From: an uncultured Ignavibacteria bacterium
GTDB taxonomy: Bacteria; Zixibacteria; MSB-5A5; CAIYYT01
Direction of reading: 5' to 3'
Length of the DNA: 64,000 nucleotides
Assembly: GCA_964576925.1 (NCBI GenBank)
Contig: CAZNWJ010000010.1
Coordinates: 69,736-133,735, forward strand
Shown: positions 7,797 through 32,259 of the stretch, one piece after another
Layout of the letters: the number at the start of each line of letters is the position of its first letter
How positions within the stretch are numbered: the stretch's first letter is position 1
Translations under genes and position numbers: made by a program
The notes under the pieces: model-generated
Seen by the model: the letters and a program-made list of their open reading frames with translations, nothing else
Told to the model about the DNA's origin: nothing
The model's database searches: none

Positions 7797-7817
7797 GCCG
7801 GAAGCAGCTCGCTTCCG
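7797..7817. terminator. Bidirectional intrinsic terminator between convergent genes (GC stem cggaagc/gcttccg, A-run upstream giving a U-run on the - strand)
   Basis: Inverted repeat read directly. On the - strand it is followed by a T-run (complement of 7785-7793), so it is strongest for the peptidase gene. Confidence 0.4.
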
Positions 7818-7853
7818 ACTCGTTTGTCATTTGGACTATAACACTCGAATTGA

Positions 7854-10100
7854 CTAACAGGGCGCTGGACCACCCGAGAAGATATAGCTGATTAAGTACA
7901 CCGCATCCGAAACCGTGATGATTCCGCTACAATCTGCATCACCGGCAAACAGCGGGCTGGGTGCCGGTCCGCCGCTGAAGATGTAGCCAATCAGATAAAC
8001 GGCATCGGAGATGTTCACCATGCCGTTGCCGTCCGCATCGCCTTTGACAAAGCTCTGCGGCTCAATCCGGATTTCGAAGTCCTTGGTGTCCGAGCCGCCG
8101 CTCACTCCGGTCGCTCGAATTGAGACCAAGAAGTTCCCCGAATCGCTCGGTGTACCGCTGATGATCCCGGTCGATGAACTCAATACAAGTCCGGTCGGAA
8201 GGCTTCCGCCCGCGATCTGGAACGTATACGGCTTGGTCCCGCCACGCACGATTACCGAGTCGCTGTAACTCACATTTTGTCCACCGGCCCGCAGGGTATC
8301 GTAGATGATATGCACCGCGTAGGCTTCCGTGCTTGTCGTCTTCAAAATCCAGTCATTGCGATCAATACTCACCGACGTAGGCGCAGAGCCGGTGACTTCA
8401 AATATGTAGTCCTGGTCGCGCTGCGTGTTGGGAACGCTGAAATCGTGATACGTACCGTTGTATACCGAGATATCGACACTCGGCATATCGAACACCAGGG
8501 GAGTCGTCGTCTGGAACTGCCTGATATGTACGTACACGCGGTACACGCCCGGACTGACTTGGTCATAAGTGTACGACACGGCATAGCGCGGATAGTACGT
8601 CCCGTAGATCCAGTCTTCGAAGAACGGATGCAGATCCATTCCTGTCACTTCTTCGCACAAATCGCGGAACCCCTCGGTTGTTACATCTTTCCACTTGAAG
8701 CGCGGATCGTCGTAGTAGGCCGCCAAGATATCAAAGAAATTCTCGTCGCCCACTACGCCGCGAAGCATGTGCAGCGCCCAGGCGCCTTTGTCGTAAACAC
8801 GCGAACTAAAGATCGCCCACACATCGGTCGTGTCGACGCAGTAAATCGATCCTCCCGAAGTGTAGCGCATACCGTTCATGTAATCGCGCAGCGCTGCGAA
8901 TCCACCGGTCGATTCAAACCACAACGCTTCAGTATACGAGGCAAAGCCCTCGTTCATCCAAATATGATGCCAGTCGCGGCAGGTAATCATATCCCCATAC
9001 CACTGGTGTCCCATTTCGTGGACGATGATCGATTGGTACATGGCGCTGCTGACAATCGACGTGTTTGTCTGGTGCTCCATTGCGCCGCCCCAGTTGAACA
9101 TCGACATCCCGTACTTTTCGTTAACAAACGGATAGAGCCCGAACAGGCGCGACAGCGTATCGAGCATCGGCACCGTCGGCGCGTAACCTGATTGCGCCGC
9201 TGCCAATTGCGACGGATACACCCAGAAATCCACCGGCATCGAATCAGTCGGCGTGTATTTGAACCAGTCGCGCCACGTCGAGTAATTCGACATCGCCAGG
9301 CTGATCAAATATGTGGCGATCGGGTAGCGCACCTTCCAGTAGGTCTCGCGCGTGCCGTTCCCCAGGTCGAGATTCCCGATCAACTTGCCGTTCGAACTGC
9401 AGAACAAATTGCTGGGATAGGTGATGATGATATCAACCGAATCCGCCTTGTCGTCCGGGTGATCCTTGCACGGCCACCAGGTGCGCGCCAGGTACGGCTC
9501 CGACAAGGACGAGATCACCGGATTGCCTCCGTAAGTCTCGAACGAGAAGGCTTGGAATCCGCCCTCGATCGGATGGCCGTTGTAGTAGGTCGAGACCGTA
9601 AAGACTTCGCCGCTGTCCTTTTGAACCGGCAGATTCACCGTCACGACATTCCCGTTTCGCGTATAGGTCGCCGGGGCGCCGTCGACGCGAATCGAATCAA
9701 TAATCATATTTGAGAACAGATCGATCTCGCAAAAGGTTACGCTGTCCTGGGTTGTCGTTGAAGTCATGTCAACCCCTGCGGTAATGATCTCCGTCGTGAT
9801 ATTGACGTTCATGTCAATGCGGTAGAAATTCACATCATATTGATATTGCGTCGGTATTGCCCCTCGCACAGCCGATTCCGCTTGTGCTTGGCGGACAGCC
9901 TCTAATCGCCTTGCCTTCGCGATTCGTTCCAAGTCGTGGGCTTCTCGAGATTCTCTAATCGCCTGTTCGATCGGAATCACCTCAAACTCATGCGCCATGA
10001 TAACGGCGGTGCCGACAATCGTCAGCAGCAGAACTAAGAGTGTGAAATACTTTAGAAATCTCAACGGTGCGGGCACGAAGTCCTCCTCTGTTGATGGCAC
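7854..10100 (-). CDS. Secreted/anchored M1-family zinc aminopeptidase with He_PIG-type Ig domain and C-terminal tandem dockerin-like module
   Basis: GAMEH(Q) exopeptidase motif; HEMGHQWYGD…WMNEGFASY (HExxH-X18-E). N-terminal hydrophobic anchor/signal. C-terminus is two repeats of D-x-D-x-N/S-G-x-x-x-I-S-D-AVYLI.YIFSGGPAP (dockerin type-I-like Ca loop plus helix). Confidence 0.85.
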   Translation of the reverse strand: MPSTEEDFVPAPLRFLKYFTLLVLLLTIVGTAVIMAHEFEVIPIEQAIRESREAHDLERIAKARRLEAVRQAQAESAVRGAIPTQYQYDVNFYRIDMNVNITTEIITAGVDMTSTTTQDSVTFCEIDLFSNMIIDSIRVDGAPATYTRNGNVVTVNLPVQKDSGEVFTVSTYYNGHPIEGGFQAFSFETYGGNPVISSLSEPYLARTWWPCKDHPDDKADSVDIIITYPSNLFCSSNGKLIGNLDLGNGTRETYWKVRYPIATYLISLAMSNYSTWRDWFKYTPTDSMPVDFWVYPSQLAAAQSGYAPTVPMLDTLSRLFGLYPFVNEKYGMSMFNWGGAMEHQTNTSIVSSAMYQSIIVHEMGHQWYGDMITCRDWHHIWMNEGFASYTEALWFESTGGFAALRDYMNGMRYTSGGSIYCVDTTDVWAIFSSRVYDKGAWALHMLRGVVGDENFFDILAAYYDDPRFKWKDVTTEGFRDLCEEVTGMDLHPFFEDWIYGTYYPRYAVSYTYDQVSPGVYRVYVHIRQFQTTTPLVFDMPSVDISVYNGTYHDFSVPNTQRDQDYIFEVTGSAPTSVSIDRNDWILKTTSTEAYAVHIIYDTLRAGGQNVSYSDSVIVRGGTKPYTFQIAGGSLPTGLVLSSSTGIISGTPSDSGNFLVSIRATGVSGGSDTKDFEIRIEPQSFVKGDADGNGMVNISDAVYLIGYIFSGGPAPSPLFAGDADCSGIITVSDAVYLISYIFSGGPAPC

Positions 10101-10340
10101 CGGGCCGGTCGCGGGGCAGGCTCAATGCGCAGGGTGACCAAAGTTGGTGACGAGGCTAAACTCACGCCTGGGCTTTTGACAGGAGTAGATCAGTCGTCGC
10201 AAGCTCGTCCACTTCTGGTGCGACGAATTTAGACCAATATACCCATTCTTGATTTTTAGTCAATAGTCGTTGTGTTGGCGCGTATGGTGTTGTCTTGTAA
10301 ATAGTTACAAAGAAGACAAATATTGTGGACAGATAGGAAA

Positions 10341-11594
10341 TTATTCGTATCGCAGCGCCACGATTGGATCAATTCTGGCCGCCCGCCATGCCGGATACAT
10401 CCCGGAGATTATGCCTGTCCCGGCCGACATCACCAGCCCGATCATTGCCCATGCGGGGGAGAAGAAGTAGCGCCATTCGAGTATCGTCGTCACCACCCAG
10501 CCCAGGCCTGCGCCGAATATGATGCCGATGCCGCCCCCCAACATCGTCAAAGTCGCCGCTTCAACCAGGAACTGGAACAGGATATTTTGCTTGCGCGCCC
10601 CCACCGCTTTCCGTACGCCGATTTCCCGAGTCCGCTGCGTCACTGCGACGAGCATGATGTTCATGACGCCGATCACACCCACCAACAGCCCGACGCACGC
10701 CACCGCTGTCGCCCCCAACTGCACTTTGGAAGTAATATTCGCTACCTCATCTTTGAATCGATCCTGCGTGAGGATCCCGAAGTTGTTCTCCTCGTCGGGG
10801 CGTACCTGCCGCACCCGTCGCAGGGCGTTGATCACCTGGTCCATCGCCTCGCCAAACTGCGTGCGCGACGTCGCGCTGCACATCAGCGTCACCGAGGTCG
10901 TATTCGGATACAGGCGGTCAAAAGTTGTCATCGGGATATAAATGAAGTCGTTCTCACTGATTCCGAACAAGTCGTCAACCCGCGCCTGAACACCGATCAC
11001 CGTGAACTTCCAGCCGTTGATCCGCACTTCCTTGCCTACCGCCTCTTCGTGCACATCAAACAACGCATCCGCAACTTCCGGCCCGATCACACAGACCATC
11101 GCTTCACGCCGCATGTCGTTCTCATCGATGAACCGTCCGAATGTGATCTCGCGGTTGGTAACCACCATCTGGCTTGGCCAGCAACCCCGGAAATCGTCCG
11201 GGTTGCGGATCGACTTGCTACCGTACTTGGCGATGTTGTTCATCGCGCGTTTCTGCGGCGCCACCGCCTTGACCAGCGGACACCATTCCTCGATCGCTTC
11301 GGCTTCGAGCATCGTGATATCTTTGCGCCGCCGCTGCTCCTCGGTCAAATTGTCAAAATCAGTGTGTTCATCCCATTGCGTGATGTACATCACGTTGCTG
11401 CCGATCTTGTCGATTGAGGACTCGGCGTATGCGGTAAAACCGTCCATGATCGTGTTCACCAGGATCACTGCGCCGACACCAACCATGACCCCGATTATCG
11501 TCATCAGACTGCGGAACTTGTTCGAGCGTACGGCATCCAGTGCCAGCCGCATCCCTTCGCGCGTCTCCCAAACACGCTGCGTCCATTTAGTCAT
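10341..11594 (-). CDS. FtsX-family ABC transporter permease (MacB-like, no fused ATPase)
   Basis: N-terminal TM, ~250-aa periplasmic domain, C-terminal FtsX 3-TM bundle; ends VALRYE. Confidence 0.85.
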   Translation of the reverse strand: MTKWTQRVWETREGMRLALDAVRSNKFRSLMTIIGVMVGVGAVILVNTIMDGFTAYAESSIDKIGSNVMYITQWDEHTDFDNLTEEQRRRKDITMLEAEAIEEWCPLVKAVAPQKRAMNNIAKYGSKSIRNPDDFRGCWPSQMVVTNREITFGRFIDENDMRREAMVCVIGPEVADALFDVHEEAVGKEVRINGWKFTVIGVQARVDDLFGISENDFIYIPMTTFDRLYPNTTSVTLMCSATSRTQFGEAMDQVINALRRVRQVRPDEENNFGILTQDRFKDEVANITSKVQLGATAVACVGLLVGVIGVMNIMLVAVTQRTREIGVRKAVGARKQNILFQFLVEAATLTMLGGGIGIIFGAGLGWVVTTILEWRYFFSPAWAMIGLVMSAGTGIISGMYPAWRAARIDPIVALRYE

Positions 11595-12810
11595 AGCTCA
11601 AGGCCTTGATCGGGTCAAAACGCGACGCGCGCACCGCAGGATACATACCAAAGAATAATCCCACCGCCATCGAGATACCGAACCCCAGCGTGATCGCCAG
11701 CGTGGTCGGCGTGACATAGATATCCAATAGGGAAGTCAGCACCTGCTCGCCGATCATCACGCCAAACAGAATCCCGGCCGACCCGCCCAACAGCGAGAGG
11801 ATCGTCGACTCGTACAGGAATTGTATCAGGATATGCCGCCGGCGCGCGCCGATCGACTTGCGAATACCGATTTCCCGGGTCCGCTCCGTTACCGAGATCA
11901 TCATGATATTCATGATCACGATCCCGCCGATAATGATCGACAGCAGCGGCAGCGAAATCATCACCACGCGAAATCCGCGTGTCAGGTCGTTGATGAAGCT
12001 CAGTATCGCATCCGGCGTCATAATCGTAAAATCATCCGCATCGTCGTATGAGATATGCCGCGCCGATCGCAGCACCGTTCGTACCTGGTCCATCGCCGGT
12101 TCGCGCCGTTCCATCGAAACTGCGCTGATCACGAGATTGACCGGATTGCCCGGCTGCTTGTAAATCTTCTGGTGCGTCGACAAGGGAATCGCAATAAACT
12201 CGTCCATGTCCTCGCCCAGCATCCCGCCCAGTTCCTCCGCCACGCCGATCACGACAAACTCGTTCTGTCCGATGCGAATTCTCTCGCCGATCGCGTTCAT
12301 CTCCTCAAACAGCCGTTCTTTCACCCGTTGCCCGATAAACGCGACCTGCTTGCGCCGGGCATCATCTTCCCAGGAAAGATAGCGGCCCGCCGCCACGTCC
12401 AGATCTCGCATCGCAAGCATGTTTGGTGTGTGTCCCTCGACCGACACCCACGGCATCCGCGTGTCCGCATATTTGACCATGTCCGATCCGTAGGCTTCCG
12501 CTCCCACTTCCGCACAATCGGGACAACCCTCCTCAATCGGCTCGATCAGTCCGCGCGTCAACTTCCGCCGTTTCATTCGCTCGAGGTATTCCTGCATCGT
12601 TAGACCGAAACCGAAACGCGTCACCATGAACGTGTTCGAACCCAGCGAAGCAAACGCGTCTTCGAGATTATTCTGCATCCCCTCAACCGTCGATACGATC
12701 GCGATTACCGAGGTTACCCCCATCGTCATCCCCAGCACGGTCAACGCCGAACGCAGGCGATTCGCCCACAGCGCAGCCAGTGACTCTTTGATCAGCGAGA
12801 AAAATACCAT
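11587..12810 (-). CDS. FtsX-family ABC transporter permease (MacB-like, no fused ATPase)
   Basis: Same architecture as 10341..11594; 8-nt overlap with it; ends KALSYD. Confidence 0.85.
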   Translation of the reverse strand: MVFFSLIKESLAALWANRLRSALTVLGMTMGVTSVIAIVSTVEGMQNNLEDAFASLGSNTFMVTRFGFGLTMQEYLERMKRRKLTRGLIEPIEEGCPDCAEVGAEAYGSDMVKYADTRMPWVSVEGHTPNMLAMRDLDVAAGRYLSWEDDARRKQVAFIGQRVKERLFEEMNAIGERIRIGQNEFVVIGVAEELGGMLGEDMDEFIAIPLSTHQKIYKQPGNPVNLVISAVSMERREPAMDQVRTVLRSARHISYDDADDFTIMTPDAILSFINDLTRGFRVVMISLPLLSIIIGGIVIMNIMMISVTERTREIGIRKSIGARRRHILIQFLYESTILSLLGGSAGILFGVMIGEQVLTSLLDIYVTPTTLAITLGFGISMAVGLFFGMYPAVRASRFDPIKALSYD

Positions 12811-12840
12811 AGCGCAGCGTCTTGTGCCAAACCGTCGTCT

Positions 12841-14169
12841 CTACTTCTCATTCATGCGGTCGAGCGAAGATTGCTCGATCGTCACGGCTTCACCGGCCTT
12901 GATCTTGCGTAAAGTCTGGTAGGAACCGGATATCACCGTGTCGCCCGGAGTTACGCCCGACAGCGCGACAATATTGCGTTCATCCGCGATCCCGGTGCTT
13001 ATCTCGACGAATTCCGCTTTCCCGCCGCGGATCACGAATACCCCCGTCTTCTTGGTCTTGTCGCTTTTCTTGCGCGAGCCGGCCTTGTCGGTCGCGGGAT
13101 CAGCTTGAGCAGCGTTGGCCTGTTGCACCAGGCCGCCATCTTCTTGCTTCGCCTCAGCTCTTGTCTTGAGTGAGTCAGGATCAAACTCCCGCGTAACTAA
13201 TGCTGCGTAAGGAACAAGGAGGGCGTCCTCAGCCTGGCTGGTTGTAATGTCTACCGTCGCCGACATCCCGGGACGGAAAGTCACTTCAGCGGCGTCAAAG
13301 CGCACCTTGACGCGAAAACTGGTAGTGTAATTGTCGGTCCCCTGGCCCGCCACCAGCGCCGAGTTGCCGATCTCCACGACCGTGCCGACAAAACTCGTGT
13401 CGCGGAACGCGTCCACCTTAATCTTGGCCTTCTGCCCGATCCCCACCTTGGCAATCTCGCTCTCGTCTACGTCGATCTCGACCTCAAACACCGACAGGTC
13501 GGCAATCGTCATCAGCGTCTGTCCCTGTGTGAATGCCGTCTGGGCCTGGGCGATTTCCCCGACTTCGACGCTCAGATATGTCAGTACACCGTCCATCGGG
13601 GCCCTGATCGATGTCTTGGAAAGATTGTCTTCGGCCTTTTCCAGTCTGGCGCGCGCCGTTTCTACCTGTGCCAGCGACGCCCTGTAGTTGGCCTCCGAGT
13701 TTTCAAAGTTGTAGCGAGCCGTGCTCGCGGCATTCTCCGAGCCAAGATTCTGCTCATAGAGCTTTCGCTGCCGCTCGGCTTCCAGCTTGTCGATCTCCAA
13801 TTGCGCCTTACCCGCCTCCGCTCGTGAAGATATCTCGTCGAGGCTATAACGCGCCTGCGACACATCCGACTGCAGCTGAATCGTGTCGAGTAATAACAAT
13901 AGGTCGCCGCGCGCAACCAGATCGCCCTCTTTGACATAGATCTTGATGATCTGGGCCGATACTTCCGCTGTGATGTCGACCTTGGTCTGCGGCTGGATGC
14001 GACCCGAGGCCGATACGATTTCTGAAATATCATCTCTATACGCCAGATCGGCCTGCACTGCCGTCGCCTCATTGCCGGAGCCCATGTTCATCGCAATGAC
14101 CAGGATCAGGACAACAACAACACCTAGCGTGATAAAAAGCGCCTTTTTCGATCGCCACTTAAAAGCCAT
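12841..14169 (-). CDS. Efflux transporter periplasmic adaptor subunit (HlyD/MacA-type membrane fusion protein)
   Basis: N-terminal TM anchor, long coiled-coil segment, beta-barrel/lipoyl-like C-terminal half; directly upstream of two FtsX permeases. Confidence 0.8.
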   Translation of the reverse strand: MAFKWRSKKALFITLGVVVVLILVIAMNMGSGNEATAVQADLAYRDDISEIVSASGRIQPQTKVDITAEVSAQIIKIYVKEGDLVARGDLLLLLDTIQLQSDVSQARYSLDEISSRAEAGKAQLEIDKLEAERQRKLYEQNLGSENAASTARYNFENSEANYRASLAQVETARARLEKAEDNLSKTSIRAPMDGVLTYLSVEVGEIAQAQTAFTQGQTLMTIADLSVFEVEIDVDESEIAKVGIGQKAKIKVDAFRDTSFVGTVVEIGNSALVAGQGTDNYTTSFRVKVRFDAAEVTFRPGMSATVDITTSQAEDALLVPYAALVTREFDPDSLKTRAEAKQEDGGLVQQANAAQADPATDKAGSRKKSDKTKKTGVFVIRGGKAEFVEISTGIADERNIVALSGVTPGDTVISGSYQTLRKIKAGEAVTIEQSSLDRMNEK

Positions 14170-15133: not shown

Positions 15134-18100
15134 ATGAATCATTGGTCAAGACCCGCATGGCTGTTTGCCATCGCATTGCTGGTAACCGCTTCTGCCATGG
15201 GCCCGGTCGGTGAAGCCTCACCCCGCGCCTGGACTATCGTGGCAACCTATGAGATTCCGGAGGGCGCCTCTGGCCTCGCCTGGGATGGTACCAACATCTA
15301 CTTCGGCATCTATGGTGTCAACGGCAGCAACGTCTACCGACTGAATCCCTCCAACGGTAGCTATGTCCTGCAATGTACCGGCACGCACGAGGATGCATAC
15401 GGTCTCACCTTTGACGGCACCAATCTCTGGACCACCGATCACCCCAGTTCTTCGCAGCCGGCCAAGGCAATGCAGTTTTCTTTGAGCGGGTCGTTGATTA
15501 CGCAGTTCAATCTGCCCGTGACATACATGTCCGGCATTGCCTACGACAACGGCAACTTCTGGGTAACTCGGTATTATCCCGACCCCGGAACCGTCTACAA
15601 GGTGAACTCCGCTGGCACCGTCCTTAAGCAATTCGCCGCTCCCGACAATCAGCCCTGGGACATCTGCCTGGCGAACGGCAACCTCTGGATCGCCGACTAC
15701 TGGGGCGACATGCTCTATCTTGTCGACAGCACGACCGGCGCGCTGCTCGACAGCCACGCCGCCGAAGACGTCGATCCTGCCGGAATTGTCTGGGACGGCA
15801 CACACCTTTGGTACTGCGACAACGGCGGCTCGAATAGTTTCGACAAGATCTACAAGATCAATCTCTCCGGCGCCGGGACTCCCGATATCGAAATCCCCGA
15901 AACAGATCACGACTTCGGCTCTGTGGTCCTTACATCGCCCGCGACCTGGCACTGCATCGTCCAAAATGTCGGCACTGCCGATCTACAAGTTGATAGCATG
16001 CTCATCAGCGGTCCGGCGAGCGTAACGAGTTCCGCCACCTTTCCGATGCTGATCGCAGCCGGCAACGTTGATACCATCTCGATAGTCTATCAACCCACGG
16101 TGATAGGGGCCATCTCTGCGACTGCGACGGTATTCTGCAATGATTTGATTACACCCACGGTTGGCCTGACCATGAGCGGTTTTGGCGTCAACTCCGGTCC
16201 CGATGCCACCCCCTTGGCCGATGAGCACGAGTATGGTAACGTCCGCATGCGTTCTTATCCACTCTGGACTCTGCTCATTCAAAACACAGGTACAGAACCT
16301 CTCTCAATCAGCTCCGTCTCGTCGACCGATCCGCAGTTCACAATCGACTCTCGCCTGGTGTTTCCGATCGTCGTCGACTTGCTCGACACGCTGCGTGTAC
16401 CCATCTGGTTCTATCCGCAGGCCCCAATTACTTACAAGACGACTATCATCATTGCCAGCAACGATCCCACCAGCCCGGCTCAACTCGACCTCGGTGGTAC
16501 CTGTGTCTTGGAGATGCAGGAACTCGGCGACACGCTCTGGAGCTACACCGTCGACACAGGCTTCGACAACAGCCCCAAGGCAATCATGCCGATTGCTGAT
16601 GTCAACGGCGACTCTATCCCGGACGTGATCATTTGCACCGAAGACAATTATATTCGCGCCTTTAATGGCAACGCCTCCGGCAGCGGCGATATCATCTGGG
16701 AGCATTATATCTCGGGCGGCTCGATCTATAATCAGAACAGCTTGATCGTCATCCCGGACATTGACGAGGACGGCTACCCCGACGTGATTGTCGGCTCCTC
16801 CTGGGGCGGCAGGCTAATTCGCGCCATCTCGGGACGATTCGGCACAACCATCTGGACCCACACGACCACCAACTACGGAGATGGCGGTTCAATCTATCAA
16901 GTTGATGCCCGCTTCGACTTCAACAACGACGGCTCTGTCGATGTCCTCGCCGCCACCGGCGACGATGGCAATGACACCGGTCCTCGCCGTGTCTATTGCT
17001 TAAACGGGCTCTCCGGCGTGCCCATCTGGGAATACCCGGTCGGCGCACCGGTCTTCGGCGTCATCGGCGTCTCTGACTTCACCGGCGATGGTCGCCCCGA
17101 TGTTGTCGCCGGCGCATCCAATGCCCTCGAAACACAAGGTATCGCCTATGGCCTCAATGGTGTCAACGGCGCCTTCGTTTGGAGCTACCCGACTCCCGGC
17201 TCTTCCGTCTGGGCGATTGAACAACTTGGAGACGTCAACGGCGACACGACTCCCGATGTCATGATCGGCGACTTCAGTATCACAACCGGCAACCTTTTCA
17301 TCCTTAACGCCCGCACCGGCGGCATGCTGCATCAGCAGTCGGCAATCGGCTCCGTCATTCGCCTCGAGCCGATCGGCGACATCAACAGCGACGGCTATGT
17401 CGATATCATGCCTTCACACGCCGCTGCAATGGCCTATGCGGTCAACGGCAAGGACTGCAGCAACATCTGGTCGCAACCGCTCCCCGACAAACCCTGGTGC
17501 GTTTCTGCCGCCAATGACCTGAATTCCGATGGCTTCAAAGACATCATGCTCGGGACATTGTTCAGTCAGAACTACGCCAGCTTCGTTAATGCGGTCGGTG
17601 GCGCTACCATGCTCAGCATCCCCTTCTCGTCGCCCATCGATGCGCTCCATTCGATCCCTGACATAGTCGGCGACGTCTCCATGGAAATGGTAGCTGGCGG
17701 CCGGGAAGGCGAAATCGTATGCTTCTCCGGCGGAACGGCGGCCTCACCCAATCAGGCTCCGTTGCAGGCCTCCGATCCAGAGCCGGCGGATGGTGCTCCC
17801 AACGTGCCAACATCGGCTGTGCTTTCCTGGACCGGCGGCGACCCCGATGCTGGAGATGTCGTGTTTTATGATGTCTACCTTGGCACTTCACTGCCGCTCA
17901 ACCTGGTTAGTCCAAACCAATCGACGACGACCTTTGCACCCGGTGCCCTGCAGGACGACGAGACCTACTTCTGGCGTGTTGACACCAAAGACCAGTTGGG
18001 CTTGATGACCGGCGGCACTACCTGGTCATTTTCGACGGCCGCGGGCTATCTCTGCGGCGACGCCGACGGCAGCGGCATCATCACAATCTCCGATGCAGTC

Positions 18101-18256
18101 TACCTGATCGGCTACATCTTCGGCGGTGGCCCGGCGCCCAACCCCCTGGCGGCCGGGGACGCCGACTGCACCGGCATCGTCACAATTTCCGACGCCGTCT
18201 ACTTGATTAGCTACATCTTCGGCGGCGGCCCTGCGCCTTGCGCCACTTGCCCCTGA
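15134..18256 (+). CDS. Large secreted protein: N-terminal beta-propeller, two Ig-like domains, 7-bladed FG-GAP-type beta-propeller, FN3 domain, C-terminal tandem dockerin-like module
   Basis: Signal peptide (AIALLVTASAMG). Repeated D-x-N/D-x-D-G-x-x-D-[VI] FG-GAP-like Ca loops (DVNGDSIPDV, DIDEDGYPDV, DFNNDGSVDV, DFTGDGRPDV, DVNGDTTPDV, DINSDGYVDI, DLNSDGFKDI). FN3-like segment. C-terminal GDADGSGIITISDAVYLIGYIFGGGPAP x2. Confidence 0.8.
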   Translation: MNHWSRPAWLFAIALLVTASAMGPVGEASPRAWTIVATYEIPEGASGLAWDGTNIYFGIYGVNGSNVYRLNPSNGSYVLQCTGTHEDAYGLTFDGTNLWTTDHPSSSQPAKAMQFSLSGSLITQFNLPVTYMSGIAYDNGNFWVTRYYPDPGTVYKVNSAGTVLKQFAAPDNQPWDICLANGNLWIADYWGDMLYLVDSTTGALLDSHAAEDVDPAGIVWDGTHLWYCDNGGSNSFDKIYKINLSGAGTPDIEIPETDHDFGSVVLTSPATWHCIVQNVGTADLQVDSMLISGPASVTSSATFPMLIAAGNVDTISIVYQPTVIGAISATATVFCNDLITPTVGLTMSGFGVNSGPDATPLADEHEYGNVRMRSYPLWTLLIQNTGTEPLSISSVSSTDPQFTIDSRLVFPIVVDLLDTLRVPIWFYPQAPITYKTTIIIASNDPTSPAQLDLGGTCVLEMQELGDTLWSYTVDTGFDNSPKAIMPIADVNGDSIPDVIICTEDNYIRAFNGNASGSGDIIWEHYISGGSIYNQNSLIVIPDIDEDGYPDVIVGSSWGGRLIRAISGRFGTTIWTHTTTNYGDGGSIYQVDARFDFNNDGSVDVLAATGDDGNDTGPRRVYCLNGLSGVPIWEYPVGAPVFGVIGVSDFTGDGRPDVVAGASNALETQGIAYGLNGVNGAFVWSYPTPGSSVWAIEQLGDVNGDTTPDVMIGDFSITTGNLFILNARTGGMLHQQSAIGSVIRLEPIGDINSDGYVDIMPSHAAAMAYAVNGKDCSNIWSQPLPDKPWCVSAANDLNSDGFKDIMLGTLFSQNYASFVNAVGGATMLSIPFSSPIDALHSIPDIVGDVSMEMVAGGREGEIVCFSGGTAASPNQAPLQASDPEPADGAPNVPTSAVLSWTGGDPDAGDVVFYDVYLGTSLPLNLVSPNQSTTTFAPGALQDDETYFWRVDTKDQLGLMTGGTTWSFSTAAGYLCGDADGSGIITISDAVYLIGYIFGGGPAPNPLAAGDADCTGIVTISDAVYLISYIFGGGPAPCATCP

Positions 18257-20589: not shown

Positions 20590-22485
20590 TTACTTGTCGA
20601 TGCCGACACCAATCTCGAACGGCCCCGGCTCCGTTGAATCCGGTTTTGCACTGATCCAGCGCGCGTTGTTTCTTGCTGCTGTGCCGGAATAACTATCGTT
20701 GCCTCCGCCGTCGGCAAACACGCCGAATGTATACAGAAACGCTCTTGCCCCTTGCTCGAGTCCCCGCGCGCCGCCGACATTGAATCCGCCTGAAGCTTGG
20801 TAGTTGTCGTCACCGCTCCAATCGTGAAAGATACCGATCCCCTGAAAATTGCCGCCGCCCAGGGACAATCCCGGTGCCAGATACGTGTCGTTTCCGGCGC
20901 GCTCGTTAAGATAGCCAATCGTGAAGTCGTGCCCCGATCCCAACGACATGTTCATCGTCGCGTTGTATATGTCATCTCCGGCAAAATCGTCAAGATACCC
21001 GATCGCGAAATGCGCCCCTGACCCGAGCGCGTACCAAACACTGTAGTAGTTGTCAGCGCCATCGCCGTCCAGGAGCATCCCGACTGCAAACCAGTAGCCG
21101 CAACCTTGGGCAAACAACCCCGCCGAGTACCTGTCGTTGCCGGCAACATCGCACAGGATCCCTACGCCACCAGCCCAACTGTGGCCGTCAATAAAATCAG
21201 CCCGTCGCCCAAACGCTGCACCCTGCGCTAGCGACGAATTGTGCTCTTGTGTCTGTTGTCCGGGGCTGAAAAGAGTCGCGTCCTCAGCCACGTACTTGTC
21301 GTCGCCGGTAAGATTTATACACAGCCCGCAGCCTTTCGTATACCCGTAACCCTGCGATGTCGCCCAGCAGTATAAGGAGTCATTGCCGGCAACGTCTGAA
21401 CAAATTCCTGCGCCGAAACTTCCGCTCCCTTGCGACAGCGTGCGCGAGCTGTAGACGTCATCCCCGCTTTGGTCAAGCATCAGCCCGACGCCGAACACAC
21501 CGGCGCCCTGCGCGATATGCACAGCCTCGTAGCGATCGTTACCGCTCTTGTCGATCACAACAGCCATCCCGAGTACCGCTCCGCCGATTCCCGGCCGGGT
21601 CGAGTCCGGCGATACATAGCGGTCGTTCCCTGAGAGATCGATGATCGCGCTGAGGGGATAGTTGTTTGCATACCCGGAAATCTGGTAAACGTCGTTGCCG
21701 CCCGGATCGAGAATCAACAGCGGAGGTGTACCGTACGCAAAATCATCGTCACCGCTTGTCCCGAAGACAATCAAGCCGTAGGGCGTTGCAATCTCCGTGA
21801 AGGCTGCCGGGAACGCGCAATACTCCAGCGAGTCGGCGGCCCGCTTCAGTGCTTCACCCAGGTCCTGCGCGCCGCCGATCAAACGGTTGAAATCCAATTG
21901 TGTGGCGTACATCTCAACGACATCGTGATACTCCTGGCTGTCCGCCACGAAATATTGAAATAGTTGATTGCGAAATCGCGAGTTGGCAAAACCGAGCAGC
22001 ACTTTTCCGAAACTAAACTGCGTGTCGGCCACCAACTCGTATATCAATCCGACCTTCGCCCGCATCCGCTCCAATTCCGGCTGCATCATCTTTCCGTTTC
22101 CGCGCACCAACTGCGTAAACGCCAGAGAATCGCTGGGCCGAAGGTACTTCTGGAGCGGGTCATCTATCAAGCCGCGGCGTACCGGGCAATCGATCTTGCG
22201 CCCGGCGTCCGCCAGCAAAGCGCTGATATTATCGCAAGCCACGGTGTAAGCCTCCAGATTCATCTGGCCGTACTTGGGTAGCTTAAAGGGATTTTTGTGC
22301 AGCATCGTGAAAAAGGACAAGCGCCACAAGTCGCCGCCCCAGGTGGCCATCTCGTCCTGATCGATCTTGATATCCTCCGCCGTCATTCCTAACTGCGCCA
22401 TCGCCGAGTCAATCAGGCTTAGGTCTTGTGCAAGAATGGCATCAGGCGCCAGCAATAACAGCGCTGCGAGCAATATCCGCTTCAT
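20590..22485 (-). CDS. Secreted repeat protein: ~250-aa N-terminal domain followed by ~12 tandem ~26-aa 'D-x-x-G-N/D-D-x-Y … Q-G-x-G … G-x-G' repeats (beta-helix/solenoid-like)
   Basis: Signal peptide MKRILLAALLLLAPDAILA. Repeats read directly: SGNDRY, SGDDVY, AGNDSLY, TGDDKY, AGNDRY, GADNYY, AGDDIY, AGNDTY, SGDDNY, GGNDSY. Confidence 0.7.
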   Translation of the reverse strand: MKRILLAALLLLAPDAILAQDLSLIDSAMAQLGMTAEDIKIDQDEMATWGGDLWRLSFFTMLHKNPFKLPKYGQMNLEAYTVACDNISALLADAGRKIDCPVRRGLIDDPLQKYLRPSDSLAFTQLVRGNGKMMQPELERMRAKVGLIYELVADTQFSFGKVLLGFANSRFRNQLFQYFVADSQEYHDVVEMYATQLDFNRLIGGAQDLGEALKRAADSLEYCAFPAAFTEIATPYGLIVFGTSGDDDFAYGTPPLLILDPGGNDVYQISGYANNYPLSAIIDLSGNDRYVSPDSTRPGIGGAVLGMAVVIDKSGNDRYEAVHIAQGAGVFGVGLMLDQSGDDVYSSRTLSQGSGSFGAGICSDVAGNDSLYCWATSQGYGYTKGCGLCINLTGDDKYVAEDATLFSPGQQTQEHNSSLAQGAAFGRRADFIDGHSWAGGVGILCDVAGNDRYSAGLFAQGCGYWFAVGMLLDGDGADNYYSVWYALGSGAHFAIGYLDDFAGDDIYNATMNMSLGSGHDFTIGYLNERAGNDTYLAPGLSLGGGNFQGIGIFHDWSGDDNYQASGGFNVGGARGLEQGARAFLYTFGVFADGGGNDSYSGTAARNNARWISAKPDSTEPGPFEIGVGIDK

Positions 22486-27059: not shown

Positions 27060-30000
27060 CTATTTTCCACCACAGGGAGCCGGCCCCCCGGTGAAGATAT
27101 ACGAAATGAGATAAACGGCGTCAGAGATGTTCACGATGCTGTTGCAATCGGCATCTCCTGCTTCCATCGGCTCCGGTGCCAGGCCGCCGGTGAAGATGTA
27201 CCCGATCAGGTAGACCGCATCGCTGATGTTCACGATCTCGTCGCCATTTGGATCACCAGCCATGTAAGTGTCCCCTACACGCAGCGTGACGGGAATCTCA
27301 AGCAGCGGCAATATCGGATCATTCGAGGTAACCTCGATCGCGCCGCCACAGGTGCTGTCACCCATGTCGAGAGCATCAAAATACAGCCAGATATTCGCCG
27401 ACGAGTTCGGTGCAATTTCTCCCGCCATCGGACTGGCATGCAGCCAGGTCGGAATCGGATCGCCCAGCGCGATCGCCAATTGATTGTGCAGGTACGCCGC
27501 GTTGTAGACGACCATGAGTCCGTCGCTGCCGCCCGCATCCTCCATACCGATCGTGCAGCCGAGGACGTCGAACCCCGGAGCAATCGCTTGGTACTGGATC
27601 TTCACGTTGCCGTCCTGCGCTAAGATCACCTGTGCCGTGATGACGTCGCCGGGATTCACCAGGCTCTCGTATTCCGGGTAGTTCAGGAACGAAACCACTA
27701 ACTGGCCATCAACGAACTGGTACACCACGCGTCCGCCGGGGTTGTCGGCGTCGGCAATGTTCAGATCATCCCAACACCAGGCAATGATATTGTTCGGCGT
27801 CGCCGTGTTCGGCAGTCCGGTGTTGTTGCGGCTGCCGAAATCGGTGGTGGCGCCGAATCCGATGAAACCATTCCCGCTCACATAGAATTCGGTGTAGTTG
27901 TTGCTATAGAACGGGAAGGTAAAGCCGATTGGGAACGGTCCGACGAAATTGTCGTCGGTCAATCCCGTGATGTCGGTACCTGTCGACGCGATGTCGATCC
28001 ACTCGTACTGCGGACCTTGCGGATCATCGGAGTCAATCCAGATATTACCGGCGCCATCAGGACCGCCGCTTCCCTTCGTGACCTCGGCGAAGTACGGCTC
28101 TTCTGTCGTACCCTTGTCGGATTCATCGATTCGGTAACCGAGCGGCACGGGCGCGGGTTCTGCCGTCGCTTTTGCCAGCACCGGCTTGCCGTAAGTCTCG
28201 CACAACAACTCGAAACTGAGCTTCCCAAGTCCGGTGTTGTTAATCGCAACCGCCACGGAATCGCGGCCGCCGATCGGGATCGACTCGCTGACCGAACTCG
28301 GATTCACCGCCATCTGCGGTGCGTGTACATGCAGCCCGACATTGACATTGCCGGTCGCATGAGTCGGATCATTCGTCGCGTACGCCAACAGACCCGAATA
28401 GTCACCCGGATTCATGTTCGTGGCGTTAAACGTCACTGGATACACCAGGCTATCGCCGATCGGTATGTAATACTGGGTCGTCGCGCACTGGATCCAGCTC
28501 ACTCCCGGCGTGAACCTTACCCGCAGCGTCGCCTCGCCAACATTCCTGATCACCAGGTTCTGTTGGTGCTGAGTGTCTTCAACAAGGCTGTCAGCAAGCG
28601 AAGTCGTCGACATCTGCATCGTCGCCGTAGCACCGGAACCGCTGACATAACCCTTCAACGAAATGTCATCGATGCTCCAGCCGTTGTACTGCACGGAACC
28701 GTCGGTCGGACCCAATCCGAACCGAATCTGGAACTCGGGATTGTTGTCCGCCACCGCGGTCAGTTCGTATACCGACTCCGTCCAGGTAGCTTCGCTGTTC
28801 GTCGCGCCGTTCGCATAGAGCTGTATCCATTCGGTTCCGTTGAAGACCTCAAGATACGCATGGTCGTACGACGACGACTCGCAACCCAACTGGTGGTAAT
28901 AGGTCATGAAAATGCTGGTGGCATTGCTGCAATCGATAATCGGCGAATAAACCCAGTTCGTTGCGCTGATATTGGCGCTGTAGGAAGCGCTCGTCGTCAG
29001 GTCGTTGCCAAGAATCATGTTCTCCGGACCGGGAGTATGGTCATCCGACGGGTCGGGACTTCCCGATGTTCCAGTACCGCCGATCGCCGGACCAATCTGC
29101 CACTCGGAAGTGCTGCCCAATCCGGTCCAGCCCTGTTCGACCGTGAAGTCTTCCAGGAAGAACACCACCCGGTCGCCCACTGTGATCGAGAAGTACTGCG
29201 TCACGGCGAATCCGCCGCTGCCGACGATGTCCAGCTTGCAATTTACGCCGTGCCCCATCGGCGTGTTGGCTGCGGCACTGACGGTGAAGACATCGCCGCT
29301 GTTCGACGCCGTACCGCCGTTTGCAGCTATCGTGCCAAACGTACCGTTCGCATCACTAATGGTTAGATAATTGTCGAGTTCGCTGATCGTGGCCGTTGTA
29401 TTGAAAGCCGTCCCCGTGCCGTTGTTCTGTACGGTCACGACAACGTTTGCTGTCTCCCCCGGGTCGATCATGCCATTGTTGTTACCTGTCGGATCGCTGA
29501 CCGCGAACGAGACATACACCACGTTCGGCGCGTGCACCGTCACTGTGAATGAACTCTCCCAGGTATCTTTCTCCGTCCCGTTTGCGGTCACAGTGAACGT
29601 CACTTTGTGGCCGTCGGGAGTCAACGGACTTACATTAAAGGCGAAAGCATCGGCAATATTGACGTTGCCAAAATTCCCGGCAATCGAACCATAGTTTTCG
29701 GAATCATCAGTGATCGTAATGTAAGAGTCTTCTGCCGAGAGCGTCGCGACGACGTCCTGGGCGTCATCCGGACCGACGTTCTGAAGCTGCAGGCCCAGCA
29801 CGATCGATTCGCCAAAGTCAATCAAGCCGTCGCCGTTTCCGGACGCGTCGTTGATCGCGTGACTCTGGTAAATGACGTATGGACCGGATGGCGCAATCAC
29901 CTGCACCGTGCCGATATACGGAACGCGATTCTGCGCCGTGACAATGACATCAGCAGTCACCGGCTGGTCAAACGGCGTCACCGCCATTTGCACCATTCCG

Positions 30001-32042
30001 GTCTGGTCGACATAACCGGCGCCATGAAGCACGCCGTTGGCCGACAGACCCACATACGAACCCGGATCGGCATTGACCGTAAACGTCGTGGAGGTCATCA
30101 GCAGCGAACCCGCATAGCTGACGTTATTCACCGTCGGGACTCTCAGGTAAGTCGTTACCGACGGGTCGCCCATCAAGTGGTACATCTCCCAGTAGTAAGC
30201 CTTACGCGAACTGCTGGACTGCTGTACCGCCAGGTTGCCACACATATTGATCGCGTAGTTCGTCACGTAGTGCGACGACACCGGTTCGCCATGATCGTGG
30301 AACATCCCGTCGTAGGCACCTAGCTTGGTCGCATCGTACGGTGGACCGGCGGCCACAACCGCCTTGCCGCCGCCGACACCCCACCAGTAGTCTTCATCCC
30401 AGTACGAGTTGTTGCTCGCGCCGATATAGCCCACGCCGCCCTTATTGGCTGCCTGCAACCAGGCCTCGGCAAATGACGGCGTGCTCTCTCCAAACGTGCT
30501 CGACAAACAGCAGTTGCCGATGCCCAGCCCGTACTTGTGCGCGTTCGTCAAGTTATTGATATCGCTGACCGTGAACGACGGATCACCCCAGCTGTCGTGC
30601 CCGCAATGCGCGGTGTAGTTCGCAATGCCCACACCATTGCTGACCGAGGCGATTACCGCCGCCGAAGCACCCGGAGCATCCGATGCCGGATAAAGCCACA
30701 CATGCGGCGTGATCCCGTGGGCGGCGTTGAAGTAAAGATTGGTACCGTAGTTGATCTGGCCGTTACCGTAAGTCGGCGCATACGACGCGTCGACACCGGC
30801 AATCAAAGTGACCTCATTCAGGTACGCCGGATTCGGCATCGTGTACTGCTCGTATTCCAGCGTCTTGTCGATTTGTGGTTGAAGCTGCGCCGTATTCTGC
30901 GCGGAGAAACGGCCGTAGTAGACTTCTGGAATATTGTCACCGGTGTATTCGGCATAACGCAAATCGGTAATATGCGAGCCCGCCGAGCCGGACCAGGCCG
31001 GAATCTGCGGTGTGTCGCCCACAAACAGCACGAAGGTCGGCGCCGGATCCTCAACCGTGCCGGCAGTATACAATCCCTGGAGATAGGTCTTAATCGCCGT
31101 CGTCGTCGAGCCGATGACGTCGGTGTAAGCAACGATGACTTTGAAGCCCTTCTTGATCTTCCAGGCGATCAACGGCTGCAACTGCGCCTCGAACATCCGC
31201 GCCGACACGATCACCATCTTGATCGGGTACTTCGTGAGATCGGCCTTCTCGTTTAGCGCCAGCATCTCATAGTTGGCCAGTTGCGCGTAGGCCGCCTCAA
31301 AGGCTGGCGAATAGGTCGCTTCAAACTGCTTCTGGGTCGCAGTCCAATCGGGATGATCGAAATTCAACCGGACCGTCACCTGCTTTTGCACACGGATCCG
31401 GTTCGTCGTCGCGTCGTACTCAATCGGTGCAACCGATACATGAGCTACGCGAAGCCCGCGCATCACACCTTCGATCGAAGTGGAGGTCACCGGCAGGGAA
31501 TAGTACCCGGCTTGCTGATACACCGCCTGCTTGAATTCGAACGGCACCGAGTTCGGGTCGTCCGACTTCGATAGCGAAGGCTGGGCGGGCATAATCACGC
31601 TCGTAACTCCATATGTCGCCAGATCGTACTCTGCCGTCTCGGTGGACAACACCTCCGCCTTCAGTTCCGCTCCTTCCGGGACGGCAATCAACTGATTGGC
31701 GGTCGGCAGCGCCGGCTCACCCACGCGGCTCGAAAGATCCAGCCCCTTCGCGCTCAAAACGGTAAACTCGCCCGCCCGCGTTGTCACCGGGACAATCTCC
31801 AACTCGCCGACATCCACACGAATCGTCATGCCTGTCGGGTCGTGTCCCAGAATCGTAATTCCACTGTTGGCATCGCTCACCTTGATCGTGTTGGCTGCCA
31901 ACGCCGTTGCTGATAACAATACCAGCAATAGCAGACTCACCTTGGTAGCAAGCTTGCTCAAAGGTACCTCCAATGATGCTTGGGATTCTTGTTGGGGATT
32001 CCCAATAATTGAGTGAAACCGGAAATGTTGCGTCATTCTCAA
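27060..32042 (-). CDS. Very large secreted peptidase C25 (gingipain-like cysteine peptidase) with multiple Ig-like/beta-sandwich domains and C-terminal tandem dockerin-like module
   Basis: Gingipain-type His motif Y-T-A-H-C-G-H-D-S-W-G and Cys motif G-I-G-N-C-C-L-S-S-T-F. C-terminal GDPNGDEIVNISDAVYLIGYIFTGG…GDADCNSIVNISDAVYLISYIFTGGPAPC. A probable true start is an internal TTG (…LSKLATKVSLLLLVLLSATALA, about 27 codons in) preceded by GGAGG, giving a clean signal peptide. Confidence 0.8.
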   Translation of the reverse strand: MRMTQHFRFHSIIGNPQQESQASLEVPLSKLATKVSLLLLVLLSATALAANTIKVSDANSGITILGHDPTGMTIRVDVGELEIVPVTTRAGEFTVLSAKGLDLSSRVGEPALPTANQLIAVPEGAELKAEVLSTETAEYDLATYGVTSVIMPAQPSLSKSDDPNSVPFEFKQAVYQQAGYYSLPVTSTSIEGVMRGLRVAHVSVAPIEYDATTNRIRVQKQVTVRLNFDHPDWTATQKQFEATYSPAFEAAYAQLANYEMLALNEKADLTKYPIKMVIVSARMFEAQLQPLIAWKIKKGFKVIVAYTDVIGSTTTAIKTYLQGLYTAGTVEDPAPTFVLFVGDTPQIPAWSGSAGSHITDLRYAEYTGDNIPEVYYGRFSAQNTAQLQPQIDKTLEYEQYTMPNPAYLNEVTLIAGVDASYAPTYGNGQINYGTNLYFNAAHGITPHVWLYPASDAPGASAAVIASVSNGVGIANYTAHCGHDSWGDPSFTVSDINNLTNAHKYGLGIGNCCLSSTFGESTPSFAEAWLQAANKGGVGYIGASNNSYWDEDYWWGVGGGKAVVAAGPPYDATKLGAYDGMFHDHGEPVSSHYVTNYAINMCGNLAVQQSSSSRKAYYWEMYHLMGDPSVTTYLRVPTVNNVSYAGSLLMTSTTFTVNADPGSYVGLSANGVLHGAGYVDQTGMVQMAVTPFDQPVTADVIVTAQNRVPYIGTVQVIAPSGPYVIYQSHAINDASGNGDGLIDFGESIVLGLQLQNVGPDDAQDVVATLSAEDSYITITDDSENYGSIAGNFGNVNIADAFAFNVSPLTPDGHKVTFTVTANGTEKDTWESSFTVTVHAPNVVYVSFAVSDPTGNNNGMIDPGETANVVVTVQNNGTGTAFNTTATISELDNYLTISDANGTFGTIAANGGTASNSGDVFTVSAAANTPMGHGVNCKLDIVGSGGFAVTQYFSITVGDRVVFFLEDFTVEQGWTGLGSTSEWQIGPAIGGTGTSGSPDPSDDHTPGPENMILGNDLTTSASYSANISATNWVYSPIIDCSNATSIFMTYYHQLGCESSSYDHAYLEVFNGTEWIQLYANGATNSEATWTESVYELTAVADNNPEFQIRFGLGPTDGSVQYNGWSIDDISLKGYVSGSGATATMQMSTTSLADSLVEDTQHQQNLVIRNVGEATLRVRFTPGVSWIQCATTQYYIPIGDSLVYPVTFNATNMNPGDYSGLLAYATNDPTHATGNVNVGLHVHAPQMAVNPSSVSESIPIGGRDSVAVAINNTGLGKLSFELLCETYGKPVLAKATAEPAPVPLGYRIDESDKGTTEEPYFAEVTKGSGGPDGAGNIWIDSDDPQGPQYEWIDIASTGTDITGLTDDNFVGPFPIGFTFPFYSNNYTEFYVSGNGFIGFGATTDFGSRNNTGLPNTATPNNIIAWCWDDLNIADADNPGGRVVYQFVDGQLVVSFLNYPEYESLVNPGDVITAQVILAQDGNVKIQYQAIAPGFDVLGCTIGMEDAGGSDGLMVVYNAAYLHNQLAIALGDPIPTWLHASPMAGEIAPNSSANIWLYFDALDMGDSTCGGAIEVTSNDPILPLLEIPVTLRVGDTYMAGDPNGDEIVNISDAVYLIGYIFTGGLAPEPMEAGDADCNSIVNISDAVYLISYIFTGGPAPCGGK

Positions 32043-32259
32043 CGGCTGTAAAAAACGTGCAAGTAGCTCATTTCAATATAGTAAATCGAGTATTAAATCC
32101 AACAAGTAAATGGAGTTTTTTGTCGCTTCCGCAAGTCCCAAAGCGCACCGCCTGCCTTGATGCCGGTTAGGAGCTGTTAACTTCCAAACTTGCGGCTGAG
32201 GCCGTAGCGGCTCGGGAGCTGTTGAGTGGAATTTTCTGCTCGAGTGAGAGATTCTGCTG

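Follow-up and report, generated by a model that had tools for sequence, protein, structure and literature searches.

A single long open reading frame (ORF) on the minus strand of the 64,000-nucleotide stretch of contig CAZNWJ010000010.1 analyzed here (the window) occupies positions 27060..32042, 1660 codons when counted from its TTG. To judge from alignments, the encoded protein is very probably an active C25 cysteine peptidase zymogen of the type of the gingipain Kgp, and it ends in a type I dockerin in place of the C-terminal domain (CTD) of type IX secretion system (T9SS) cargo. Our overall explanation, which we regard as probable, is that of a Sec-exported Kgp-type zymogen tethered by way of its dockerin. 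Research on gingipains has been concerned almost exclusively with one oral pathogen, in which they are T9SS-anchored virulence factors. Their protease core is also common among Zixibacteria-like bacteria of the environment. The original prediction, made from the sequence of the window, had described a gingipain-like C25 peptidase with recognizable His and Cys motifs, many beta-sandwich domains and a dockerin instead of a T9SS CTD, and all of these features were borne out. Residue numbers below refer to the corrected protein of 1633 residues; adding 27 gives the numbering of the long ORF. Coordinates are collected in Table 1.

Protease core and beta-sandwich region

The C25 models of Pfam were searched with HMMER, and Propeptide_C25, Peptidase_C25 and Peptidase_C25_C were all matched, with scores much better than chance would give. 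The catalytic domain reached 195.9 bits with PF01364 (cut-off 23), covering 372 of the 374 profile positions. The best match among solved structures was the catalytic plus immunoglobulin (Ig)-like domain of Kgp (4rbm, E=1.7e-88; 4tkx, E=7.7e-88), with 172 of 446 aligned residues identical (38.6%). This was followed by the Kgp prodomain 5mun (E=2.7e-36 with the full-length query and 8.8e-38 with the isolated N-terminus), by RgpB (1cvr, 4ief) and by PorU at E=0.0014. Catalysis in Kgp is the work of Cys477 and His444 (PMC5266723), which form a triad with Asp388 (PMC12385285), while Asp516, Thr442, Asn475 and Trp513 are pocket residues (PMC13266019). Equivalent positions were assigned from the HMMER alignments, with a chain offset of 228 for 4rbm and of 14 for the prodomain structure 5mun. 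The motif AHCGHDSWG at long-ORF residue 478 and the motif GIGNCCLSSTFG at long-ORF residue 507 thereby place His452 and Cys485 on the catalytic pair of Kgp, as had been anticipated.

The 120 best homologues were aligned with MAFFT, and the resulting alignment was used for all residue conservation counts. His452, Cys484, Cys485, Asp391, Asp524, Asn483 and Trp521 are invariant in all 120; Thr450 is conserved in 117 and replaced by S in three. The prodomain Lys132 is K in 119 homologues, with a gap in the remaining one, and the prodomain of RgpB has Arg at this position. Asp516 of Kgp, the counterpart of Asp524, reportedly sets Lys specificity, as described with the Kgp structure by de Diego et al. 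in 2014, and the function of the inhibitory-loop Lys129 of the Kgp prodomain is said to have been addressed by Pomowski et al. in 2017. As the protein pairs an S1 Asp with a prodomain Lys, and the Arg-specific RgpB has Arg at the latter position, it is predicted to be a Lys-specific zymogen kept latent by its prodomain. Specificity for Lys is likely, if less firmly indicated than the identity of the enzyme.

Downstream of the core, an AlphaFold2 (AF2) model of residues 685-1560, built on a 57-sequence alignment, was all beta, with about 60 strands and a predicted local distance difference test (pLDDT) score of 87.2. From the model and the domain assignments of homologues, this array is made up of two CARDB/DUF11-like domains, one InhA-type MAM-like, HYDIN/VesB Ig-like, one NIDO-like and one further Ig-like domain. 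The sequence searches were less explicit: one HYDIN/VesB Ig-like domain was listed by Pfam for the whole protein, segment-wise Pfam searches of the middle region gave sub-threshold DUF11/CARDB-like, InhA-type MAM and HYDIN/VesB Ig matches only, and the homologues have precomputed NIDO, MAM and BACON assignments. When the 876-residue array was compared with the PDB using Foldseek, generic Ig, ASH and macroglobulin sandwiches were found (hydin, CFAP65, alpha2-macroglobulin), and neither a cohesin nor a specific function was indicated. The array presumably serves in substrate binding or as a spacer. NCBIfam searches of the whole protein gave only MXAN_5808, PorU and myxobacterial M36 models, all far below threshold, and these matches reflect shared accessory domains.

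The C-terminal dockerin and its possible role in tethering

The C-terminus matches Pfam Dockerin_1 (PF00404) at long-ORF residues 1595-1649 (E=3.2e-5; 24.5 bits, cut-off 22.9). This match is marginal for a single sequence; it covers positions 1-56 of the 57 in the profile. Two repeats, DPNGDEIVNISDAVYLIGYIF and DADCNSIVNISDAVYLISYIF, are each followed by GGxAP and contain duplicated Ca loops, DPNGDEIVNISD and DADCNSIVNISD, with D or N at positions 1, 3, 5 and 12. A profile was made from an alignment of 36 dockerin modules of this type, in which both loops have positions 1 and 12 either invariant or conserved to more than 90%. It matched 30 solved dockerin-containing chains in the PDB at E<0.05, the best being the double dockerin 8x39 (8.5e-10); the cohesin-bound dockerins 4dh2_B (9e-8), 4uyp_B, 3ul4_B and 2ccl_B were also matched, as were 1daq and 2mte. 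The AF2 model of the module has a pLDDT of 88.9, and the Foldseek matches at ranks 1-33 were all dockerins, with a TM-score of 0.6-0.8 and a root-mean-square deviation (rmsd) of 1.6-2.5 A over about 60 residues. The probability was 1.00 for most of them; the small size of the domain kept the E values at no better than about 1e-3. The original prediction had spoken of a tandem dockerin-like C-terminus. The dockerin identity stands by Pfam, profile and fold, but the plural does not: several dockerins at the C-terminus were considered and rejected in favor of one domain built of two canonical repeats.

Cys pairs co-vary among the 36 aligned modules. A Cys at position 4 of loop 2 (DxxC) occurs with the ending PAPC, a Cys ahead of repeat 1 (CGD) pairs with a terminal xC, and some modules have both pairs. 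This pattern suggests one or two disulfide staples, a feature that we do not know from clostridial dockerins.

A T9SS CTD was not found on the peptidase, either by Pfam and NCBIfam searches of the whole protein or by an NCBIfam search of its last 99 residues at E<=10. The last search was applied to all three dockerin-ending proteins of the window and returned no model, so the module is not a curated sorting domain. The CTD models do detect such domains in this DNA: the protein encoded at 61733..62383, used as a positive control, scored 32-46 bits, above threshold. Because this protein carries a CTD, the same genome uses both CTD and dockerin tags, and the dockerin is a choice made within a CTD-using lineage rather than a consequence of lacking CTDs.

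The C-terminal modules of the 120 closest homologues were tallied. Ninety end in this dockerin, in 84 of them no more than nine residues from the end. In about 20 (P0039, P0075, P0090 and P0103 among them), one dockerin-like helix leads into CxxCPP or CPxxPP and a tail of 30-40 residues, and a few have divergent double repeats. Two (P0117, P0118) have FlgD_ig plus Por_Secre_tail, a T9SS CTD, and two others (P0109, P0119) an IPTL-CTERM-like tail consisting of EEIPTLSQWGLI, a transmembrane segment and RRK. Among 79 C25-type ORFs in genome loci, 46 have a dockerin and eight a T9SS CTD; the other 25 are truncated. Orthologues with a T9SS CTD in other Zixibacteria include P0117 and P0118 as well as those in loci L048, L050, L051, L054, L059 and L061. 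Thus the attachment module is interchangeable, with dockerins, T9SS CTDs and IPTL-CTERM-like tails found on orthologues.

The dockerin is also found well beyond this peptidase family. Within the window, the products of 7854..10100 and 15134..18256 have the near-identical ending ...ISDAVYLISYIFxGGPAPC. In 1.44 Mb of related loci together with the window, 124 ORFs were tagged, 117 of them within nine residues of the stop codon. Arrays of seven to nine consecutive dockerin-tagged genes were seen in four loci (L016:354-25387, L017:781-22521, L080:4482-26928, L068:4507-27061). The C25 gene sits inside these arrays, and many of the other members are M14 carboxypeptidases or C25 paralogues. Pfam searches of 53 tagged ORFs found Peptidase_M14 in 11 and Peptidase_C25 in seven, along with Peptidase_C1, GEVED, TSP_3, He_PIG, MAM and NIDO, and the tagged set as a whole is rich in M14, C25, C1 and M1 peptidases. 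The dockerin tag is therefore a lineage-wide device. The NCBI pipeline names such proteins 'C25 family cysteine peptidase' or 'dockerin type I repeat-containing protein'. A HMMER scan of 1.84 billion representative sequences with the dockerin profile gave at least 60,057 clusters at E<=0.001, of which 20,868 were at E<=1e-10. The protein search with this profile returned mostly short fragments that lack domain context. Poly-dockerin proteins were also seen (P0241, P0243, P0350 and others), with 9 copies in 720 residues, 12 in 1187 and 18 in 2637.

Cohesins were sought in 26 CTD-tagged ORFs of related loci. One of these, L049:6610-9309 (-), encodes a protein of 900 residues with Big_13 repeats, a Cohesin match at residues 675-773 (E=4e-8, 34 bits against 24.1) and a T9SS CTD; its gene lies 1-4 kb from a C25 gene. 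Ten small CTD-tagged ORFs in this set had no cohesin. Three further cohesin-like domains were found with jackhmmer: the 900-residue protein has another at its N-terminus, the neighboring CTD protein of 270 residues (L049:5726-6535 (-)) contains one, and so does the orthologue of the large cohesin protein on the Zixibacteria chromosome CP070813.1 (L046:1-2385 (-)). The cohesin-like profile retrieved 23 proteins, most of them about 263 residues long and named 'T9SS type A sorting domain-containing protein [Candidatus Zixiibacteriota]'. On the metagenome contigs L084-L087 these form a two-gene unit, in which a gene for an 890-residue protein with Cohesin and CTD, the former a precomputed PF00963 assignment, is followed by that for the 263-residue protein. 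On L088 the unit is cut off by the end of the contig, which leaves the upstream gene unannotated. Immediately ahead of its C-terminal cohesin, the large cohesin protein contains a stretch that resembles a dockerin (WLGDVAGSGGLNAYDGLVYFQDLLIL...TTDDAINFEDLVIFAINF).

The tail swapping, the two tag types in one genome, the peptidase-rich tagged set and the CTD-anchored cohesins elsewhere go beyond routine annotation, and together they make a proteolytic complex plausible. In the mechanism that we propose, the precursor would be exported by the Sec pathway, and the prodomain would keep the enzyme latent by placing Lys132 in the S1 pocket, as in Kgp. Cleavage of the prodomain would activate the enzyme, which would then cut after Lys. 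In a Ca2+-dependent manner, the dockerin, with Cys1606 and Cys1630 joined in a disulfide staple, would bind the cohesin of a surface protein that in turn owes its anchoring to T9SS. The peptidase and the other dockerin-tagged peptidases of the lineage would in this way be tethered in a cell-associated protein-degrading complex, the dockerin replacing direct anchoring by a T9SS CTD. For this genome in particular, we put forward cohesin-mediated tethering tentatively, as a serious possibility.

Several points weigh against this explanation. No cohesin was found in the window or within 10 kb on either side in the loci of the closest relatives, and no T9SS machinery genes were seen. The four best PDB matches of the cohesin profile are cohesins, but weak ones (E 0.01-0.03). 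The cohesin-bearing genomes belong to a different clade, in which the C25 enzymes are mostly CTD-tagged, and their dockerin-like variant differs ("...YFKGG...CxxCPP"); the one dockerin-like ORF of L046 is of the CxxCPP type. The cohesins of L049 and L046 may therefore not be the cognate partners of the dockerin subtype of the window. No known route takes dockerin-tagged proteins of diderms through the outer membrane. In the enzyme itself, Kgp Gly445 is replaced by Cys and Kgp Trp391 by Tyr, and the predicted activity, specificity, latency and disulfide are read from alignment and covariation.

An alternative is that the dockerin-like module works independently of a cohesin, either as a general C-terminal export or sorting tag or as a Ca2+-dependent module that binds the envelope, polysaccharide or another dockerin. 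The module lies near the stop codon, as sorting signals do, in the large majority of both tagged ORFs and homologues, and true sorting signals, whether a T9SS CTD or an IPTL-CTERM-like tail, take this position in orthologues. The conserved near-terminal Cys with its paired patterns, and the lack of a cohesin in the window and the closest loci, point the same way, and more than 60,000 clusters, with some proteins bearing 9-18 tandem copies, are hard to match with 23 cohesin-like proteins. On the other hand, the module is an ordinary type I dockerin by sequence and fold, with its Ca loops intact, and clostridial dockerins are likewise mostly C-terminal. Cohesin plus CTD proteins do occur in Zixibacteria beside C25 genes, the cohesin search was limited by its word index and covered small parts of the genomes, and no secretion machinery is known to recognize a dockerin. 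We therefore consider this alternative unlikely, although it is the strongest of those weighed here.

Tethering through the dockerin, if true, would mean that uncultured sediment and soil bacteria build cell-bound protein-degrading complexes that parallel cellulosomes, and it would bear on the recycling of detrital protein. The locus is also a natural experiment in protein sorting, in which the secreted proteins that a diderm sends by way of a T9SS CTD can be set against those for which it uses a different tag. A broader conjecture, which we offer as speculative and rather doubtful, is that in Zixibacteria and allied bacteria of the Fibrobacterota-Chlorobiota-Bacteroidota (FCB) group the stapled dockerin with a near-terminal Cys is a phylum-wide alternative to the T9SS CTD. 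Secreted proteins in the tens of thousands, with peptidases (C25, M14, C1, M1) predominating, would bear it and be displayed on T9SS-anchored cohesins, as a 'proteolytic cellulosome'. More radically, the module may be a new signal for outer-membrane export or anchoring, or cohesin-dockerin complexes may ride T9SS together.

Translation start and 5' region

The translation start of the peptidase gene is very probably the in-frame TTG at 31959..31961, which follows GGAGG at a distance of 5 nt. Translation from this codon gives the N-terminus MSKLATKVSLLLLVLLSATALAAN, in which K3 and K7, the hydrophobic core VSLLLLVLLSATALA and the cleavage motif ALA|A can be read directly off the sequence. Hydropathy averaged over 11 residues has its maximum, 2.85, at residue 8. 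The 27 codons that extend the longest-ORF track beyond this start encode a polar stretch (first-window hydropathy -1.0). An alignment of the 5' region was made from the window and four orthologous loci (86, 79, 73 and 70% protein identity). GGAGGT and TTG are invariant in all five, and the leader upstream of the TTG has indels that are not multiples of three. In the orthologue L004 an in-frame TAG lies 22 codons upstream of the TTG and no alternative start is available, so that this orthologue must initiate at the TTG. Orthologues are 1620-1633 residues long and have N-termini of the form M-(S/R/K)-K followed by the hydrophobic core.

These results agree with the original prediction that the first 27 codons are non-coding and that a TTG preceded by GGAGG opens the signal peptide; its figure of 1660 residues for the protein must be lowered to 1633. 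Its view that the start had been mis-called is correct for the longest-ORF track but not for the NCBI record. The NCBI protein P0001 is 100% identical to the product and has exactly 1633 residues; it already begins at the short TTG, so the error is confined to the track. In practical terms, longest-ORF tracks over-extend this gene by 27 codons.

A start farther upstream, at the ATG 32034..32036 or the TTG 32040..32042, would give a product of 1658-1660 residues with 25-27 residues ahead of the signal peptide. That ATG, 24-25 codons before the TTG, shares the reading frame in four of the five loci, it is the start of a Logan gene call (P0003, 1657 residues), and the leader nucleotide sequence is conserved between the orthologous loci. 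However, in L004 the ATG is out of frame in addition to the TAG already described, and it has no GGAGG in front of it, the invariant element being GGAGG-N5-TTG. The polar extension would bury the signal peptide, and nearly all homologues, including the NCBI call for the same protein, begin at the signal peptide. An upstream start is thus quite improbable, and a longer form made from the ATG is unlikely.

Farther upstream, a conserved block, TTGGATTTAATACTCGATTTACTATATTG, at 32074..32102 (-) resembles TTG-N19-TAnnTTG, with Bacteroidota-like spacing, and could be a promoter. A sigma-70 promoter scan did not flag this block, and its -35 element is weak. Between the block and the TTG lies a conserved leader of about 100 nt (31962..32073), which contains the ATG at 32034..32036; in L004 the upstream ATG opens an upstream ORF of 25 codons whose TGA overlaps the TTG start. 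Rfam gave no match in the 5' region. At the other end of the gene, the promoter and terminator scan found a terminator-like hairpin over the stop codon.

Table 1. Coordinates of the C25 peptidase gene, its parts and other tagged genes of the window
Feature	Position	Strand	Remarks
Corrected coding sequence	27060..31961	-	1633-residue C25 peptidase precursor; TTG start; stop codon 27060..27062
27 extra codons of the track ORF	31962..32042	-	most likely 5' leader, non-coding; frame-breaking indels and TAG in L004
Shine-Dalgarno GGAGG	31967..31971	-	5 nt ahead of TTG start; kept in 5/5 loci
Sec signal peptide, residues 1-22	31896..31961	-	n-region with K, hydrophobic core of 14 residues, cleavage motif ALA|A, lipobox Cys absent
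Propeptide_C25 prodomain, residues 33-212 (long ORF 60-239)	31326..31865	-	Pfam PF08126, 2e-19, 70 bits
Lys132 in PSLSKSDDP	31566..31568	-	aligned with Kgp prodomain Lys129 (PSMSKSDDP)
Peptidase_C25 catalytic domain, residues 249-602 (long ORF 276-629)	30156..31217	-	Pfam, 1.6e-57
Asp391, third triad residue	30789..30791	-	Kgp Asp388
Catalytic His452	30606..30608	-	Kgp His444
Catalytic Cys485	30507..30509	-	Kgp Cys477; preceding Cys484 is Kgp Cys476
Asp524, S1-pocket floor, in YWDEDYWW	30390..30392	-	Kgp Asp516 (in YWGEDYYW)
Peptidase_C25_C Ig-like domain, residues 609-687 (long ORF 636-714)	29901..30137	-	PF03785, 1.5e-14, 54 bits
Beta-sandwich accessory array, residues 685-1560	27282..29909	-	AF2 and homologue domain assignments
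Single type I dockerin, residues 1568-1630	27072..27260	-	Pfam, profile search, AF2/Foldseek
Dockerin Ca-loop plus helix repeats 1 and 2	27192..27254 and 27093..27155	-	
Cys1606 and Cys1630, probable disulfide staple	27144..27146 and 27072..27074	-	Cys covariation
M1 aminopeptidase with He_PIG and the same dockerin	7854..10100	-	paralogous tag use
FG-GAP/ASH-Ig protein ending in the same dockerin	15134..18256	+	orthologue adjoins the C25 gene in L002
Cupredoxin-like protein with T9SS-type CTD, 216 residues, signal peptide	61733..62383	-	FlgD_ig 4e-12, Por_Secre_tail 1.4e-7

Host, neighboring genes and comparison with known systems

The named homologues are called 'C25 family cysteine peptidase [candidate division Zixibacteria / Candidatus Zixiibacteriota]', and the host is a Zixibacteria-like bacterium of the FCB group. 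Relatives of the C25 enzyme are encoded in 547 stretches (one genome per GTDB species), the nearest, in L005, with 96% identity; apart from L005, the majority come from genomes labelled Zixibacteria. The closest genomes (L005-L008, L011, L014, L017-L019 and others) are labelled uncultured Ignavibacteria or Ignavibacteriales in third-party assemblies, and equally related ones are labelled Zixibacteria; this is probably inconsistent taxonomy. The window encodes a heptosyltransferase, an O-antigen ligase and Wzz, from which we conclude that the organism is diderm. Among the other genes, 20590..22485 (-) encodes a signal-peptide protein of 631 residues with no Pfam match, whose short G-[ND]-D-x-Y repeats (GNDVY, GNDRY, GDDVY) are suggestive of a beta-helix or beta-roll. 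Around the dockerin-tagged M1 gene, at 167..14169, are five genes for MacB/FtsX-type permeases, an ABC ATPase and a HlyD-family adaptor, a set that looks ordinary.

It is most improbable that the enzyme is a PorU-like C25 sortase or transpeptidase that processes secreted proteins rather than a degradative endopeptidase: its PorU-type NCBIfam matches (E about 1e-7) reach 29-31 bits against cut-offs of 420-450, missing them more than 10-fold, the match to the PorU structure 6za2 amounts to 19 bits against about 300 for Kgp, and its prodomain, inhibitory Lys included, is of the gingipain type and its S1 Asp like that of Kgp. The model for the PorU-type T9SS sortase, NF033707, was accordingly rejected (29.4 bits, cut-off 420).

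Kgp of Porphyromonas gingivalis (4rbm, 4tkx, 5mun) begins in the same way, with a prodomain, a catalytic domain and an Ig-like domain in that order. The triad of Cys, His and Asp is kept, as are the S1 Asp, the counterparts of Thr442, Asn475 and Trp513, and the inhibitory Lys of the prodomain. In contrast to Kgp, the protein described here has no haemagglutinin/adhesin (cleaved-adhesin) domains or T9SS CTD by Pfam and NCBIfam; about 880 residues of CARDB, MAM, Ig and NIDO-like modules and a dockerin are found instead. The hosts also differ, one being a Bacteroidota pathogen and the other an environmental, Zixibacteria-like bacterium. Lacking adhesin domains and CTD, the protein resembles Kgp in its protease core but by its full architecture does not count as a gingipain.

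The dockerin resembles clostridial type I dockerins (4dh2_B, 1daq, 2mte, 2ccl_B, 1ohz_B) in its two repeats of about 22 residues, each a Ca loop plus helix, in profile E values down to about 1e-7 for single dockerins, and in the TM-scores and rmsd values given above. It differs from them in the Pro-rich 'GGPAP' after each helix, in the Cys 0-9 residues from the protein end and the paired Cys patterns, and in belonging to a diderm host in which the cargo is mostly peptidases rather than glycoside hydrolases. Compared with T9SS type A CTD cargo (TIGR04183/PF18962), the dockerin-tagged proteins are likewise large, secreted, multi-domain FCB hydrolases, and some orthologues bear the CTD itself, but the C-terminal module here is alpha-helical and of a Ca-binding type, not a beta-sandwich.

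Our literature search found nothing that links Zixibacteria with dockerins, cohesins, T9SS or cellulosomes. The closest parallel is in another phylum. In 'Ca. Stygibacter' (Cloacimonadota), a C25 peptidase with a signal peptide and a C-terminal dockerin has been described, along with a Cloacimonadota cohesin scaffoldin that has a T9SS CTD; it was proposed that the peptidase attaches to the scaffoldin, in a cellulosome-like complex for the degradation of polypeptides and polysaccharides (Williams et al. 2021, PMC8542988). Thus, the fusion of C25 with a C-terminal dockerin is already known from Cloacimonadota, and the protein described here is a further case, in Zixibacteria. The phyla differ, and the Cloacimonadota C25 relatives that we retrieved (L078) carry T9SS CTDs. 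By the published description, the two proteins, both from uncultured FCB bacteria, agree in having a signal peptide, a C25 domain and, at the C-terminus, a dockerin, and the combination of cohesin and CTD in the 'Ca. Stygibacter' system follows the same logic as the cohesin plus CTD proteins of Zixibacteria.

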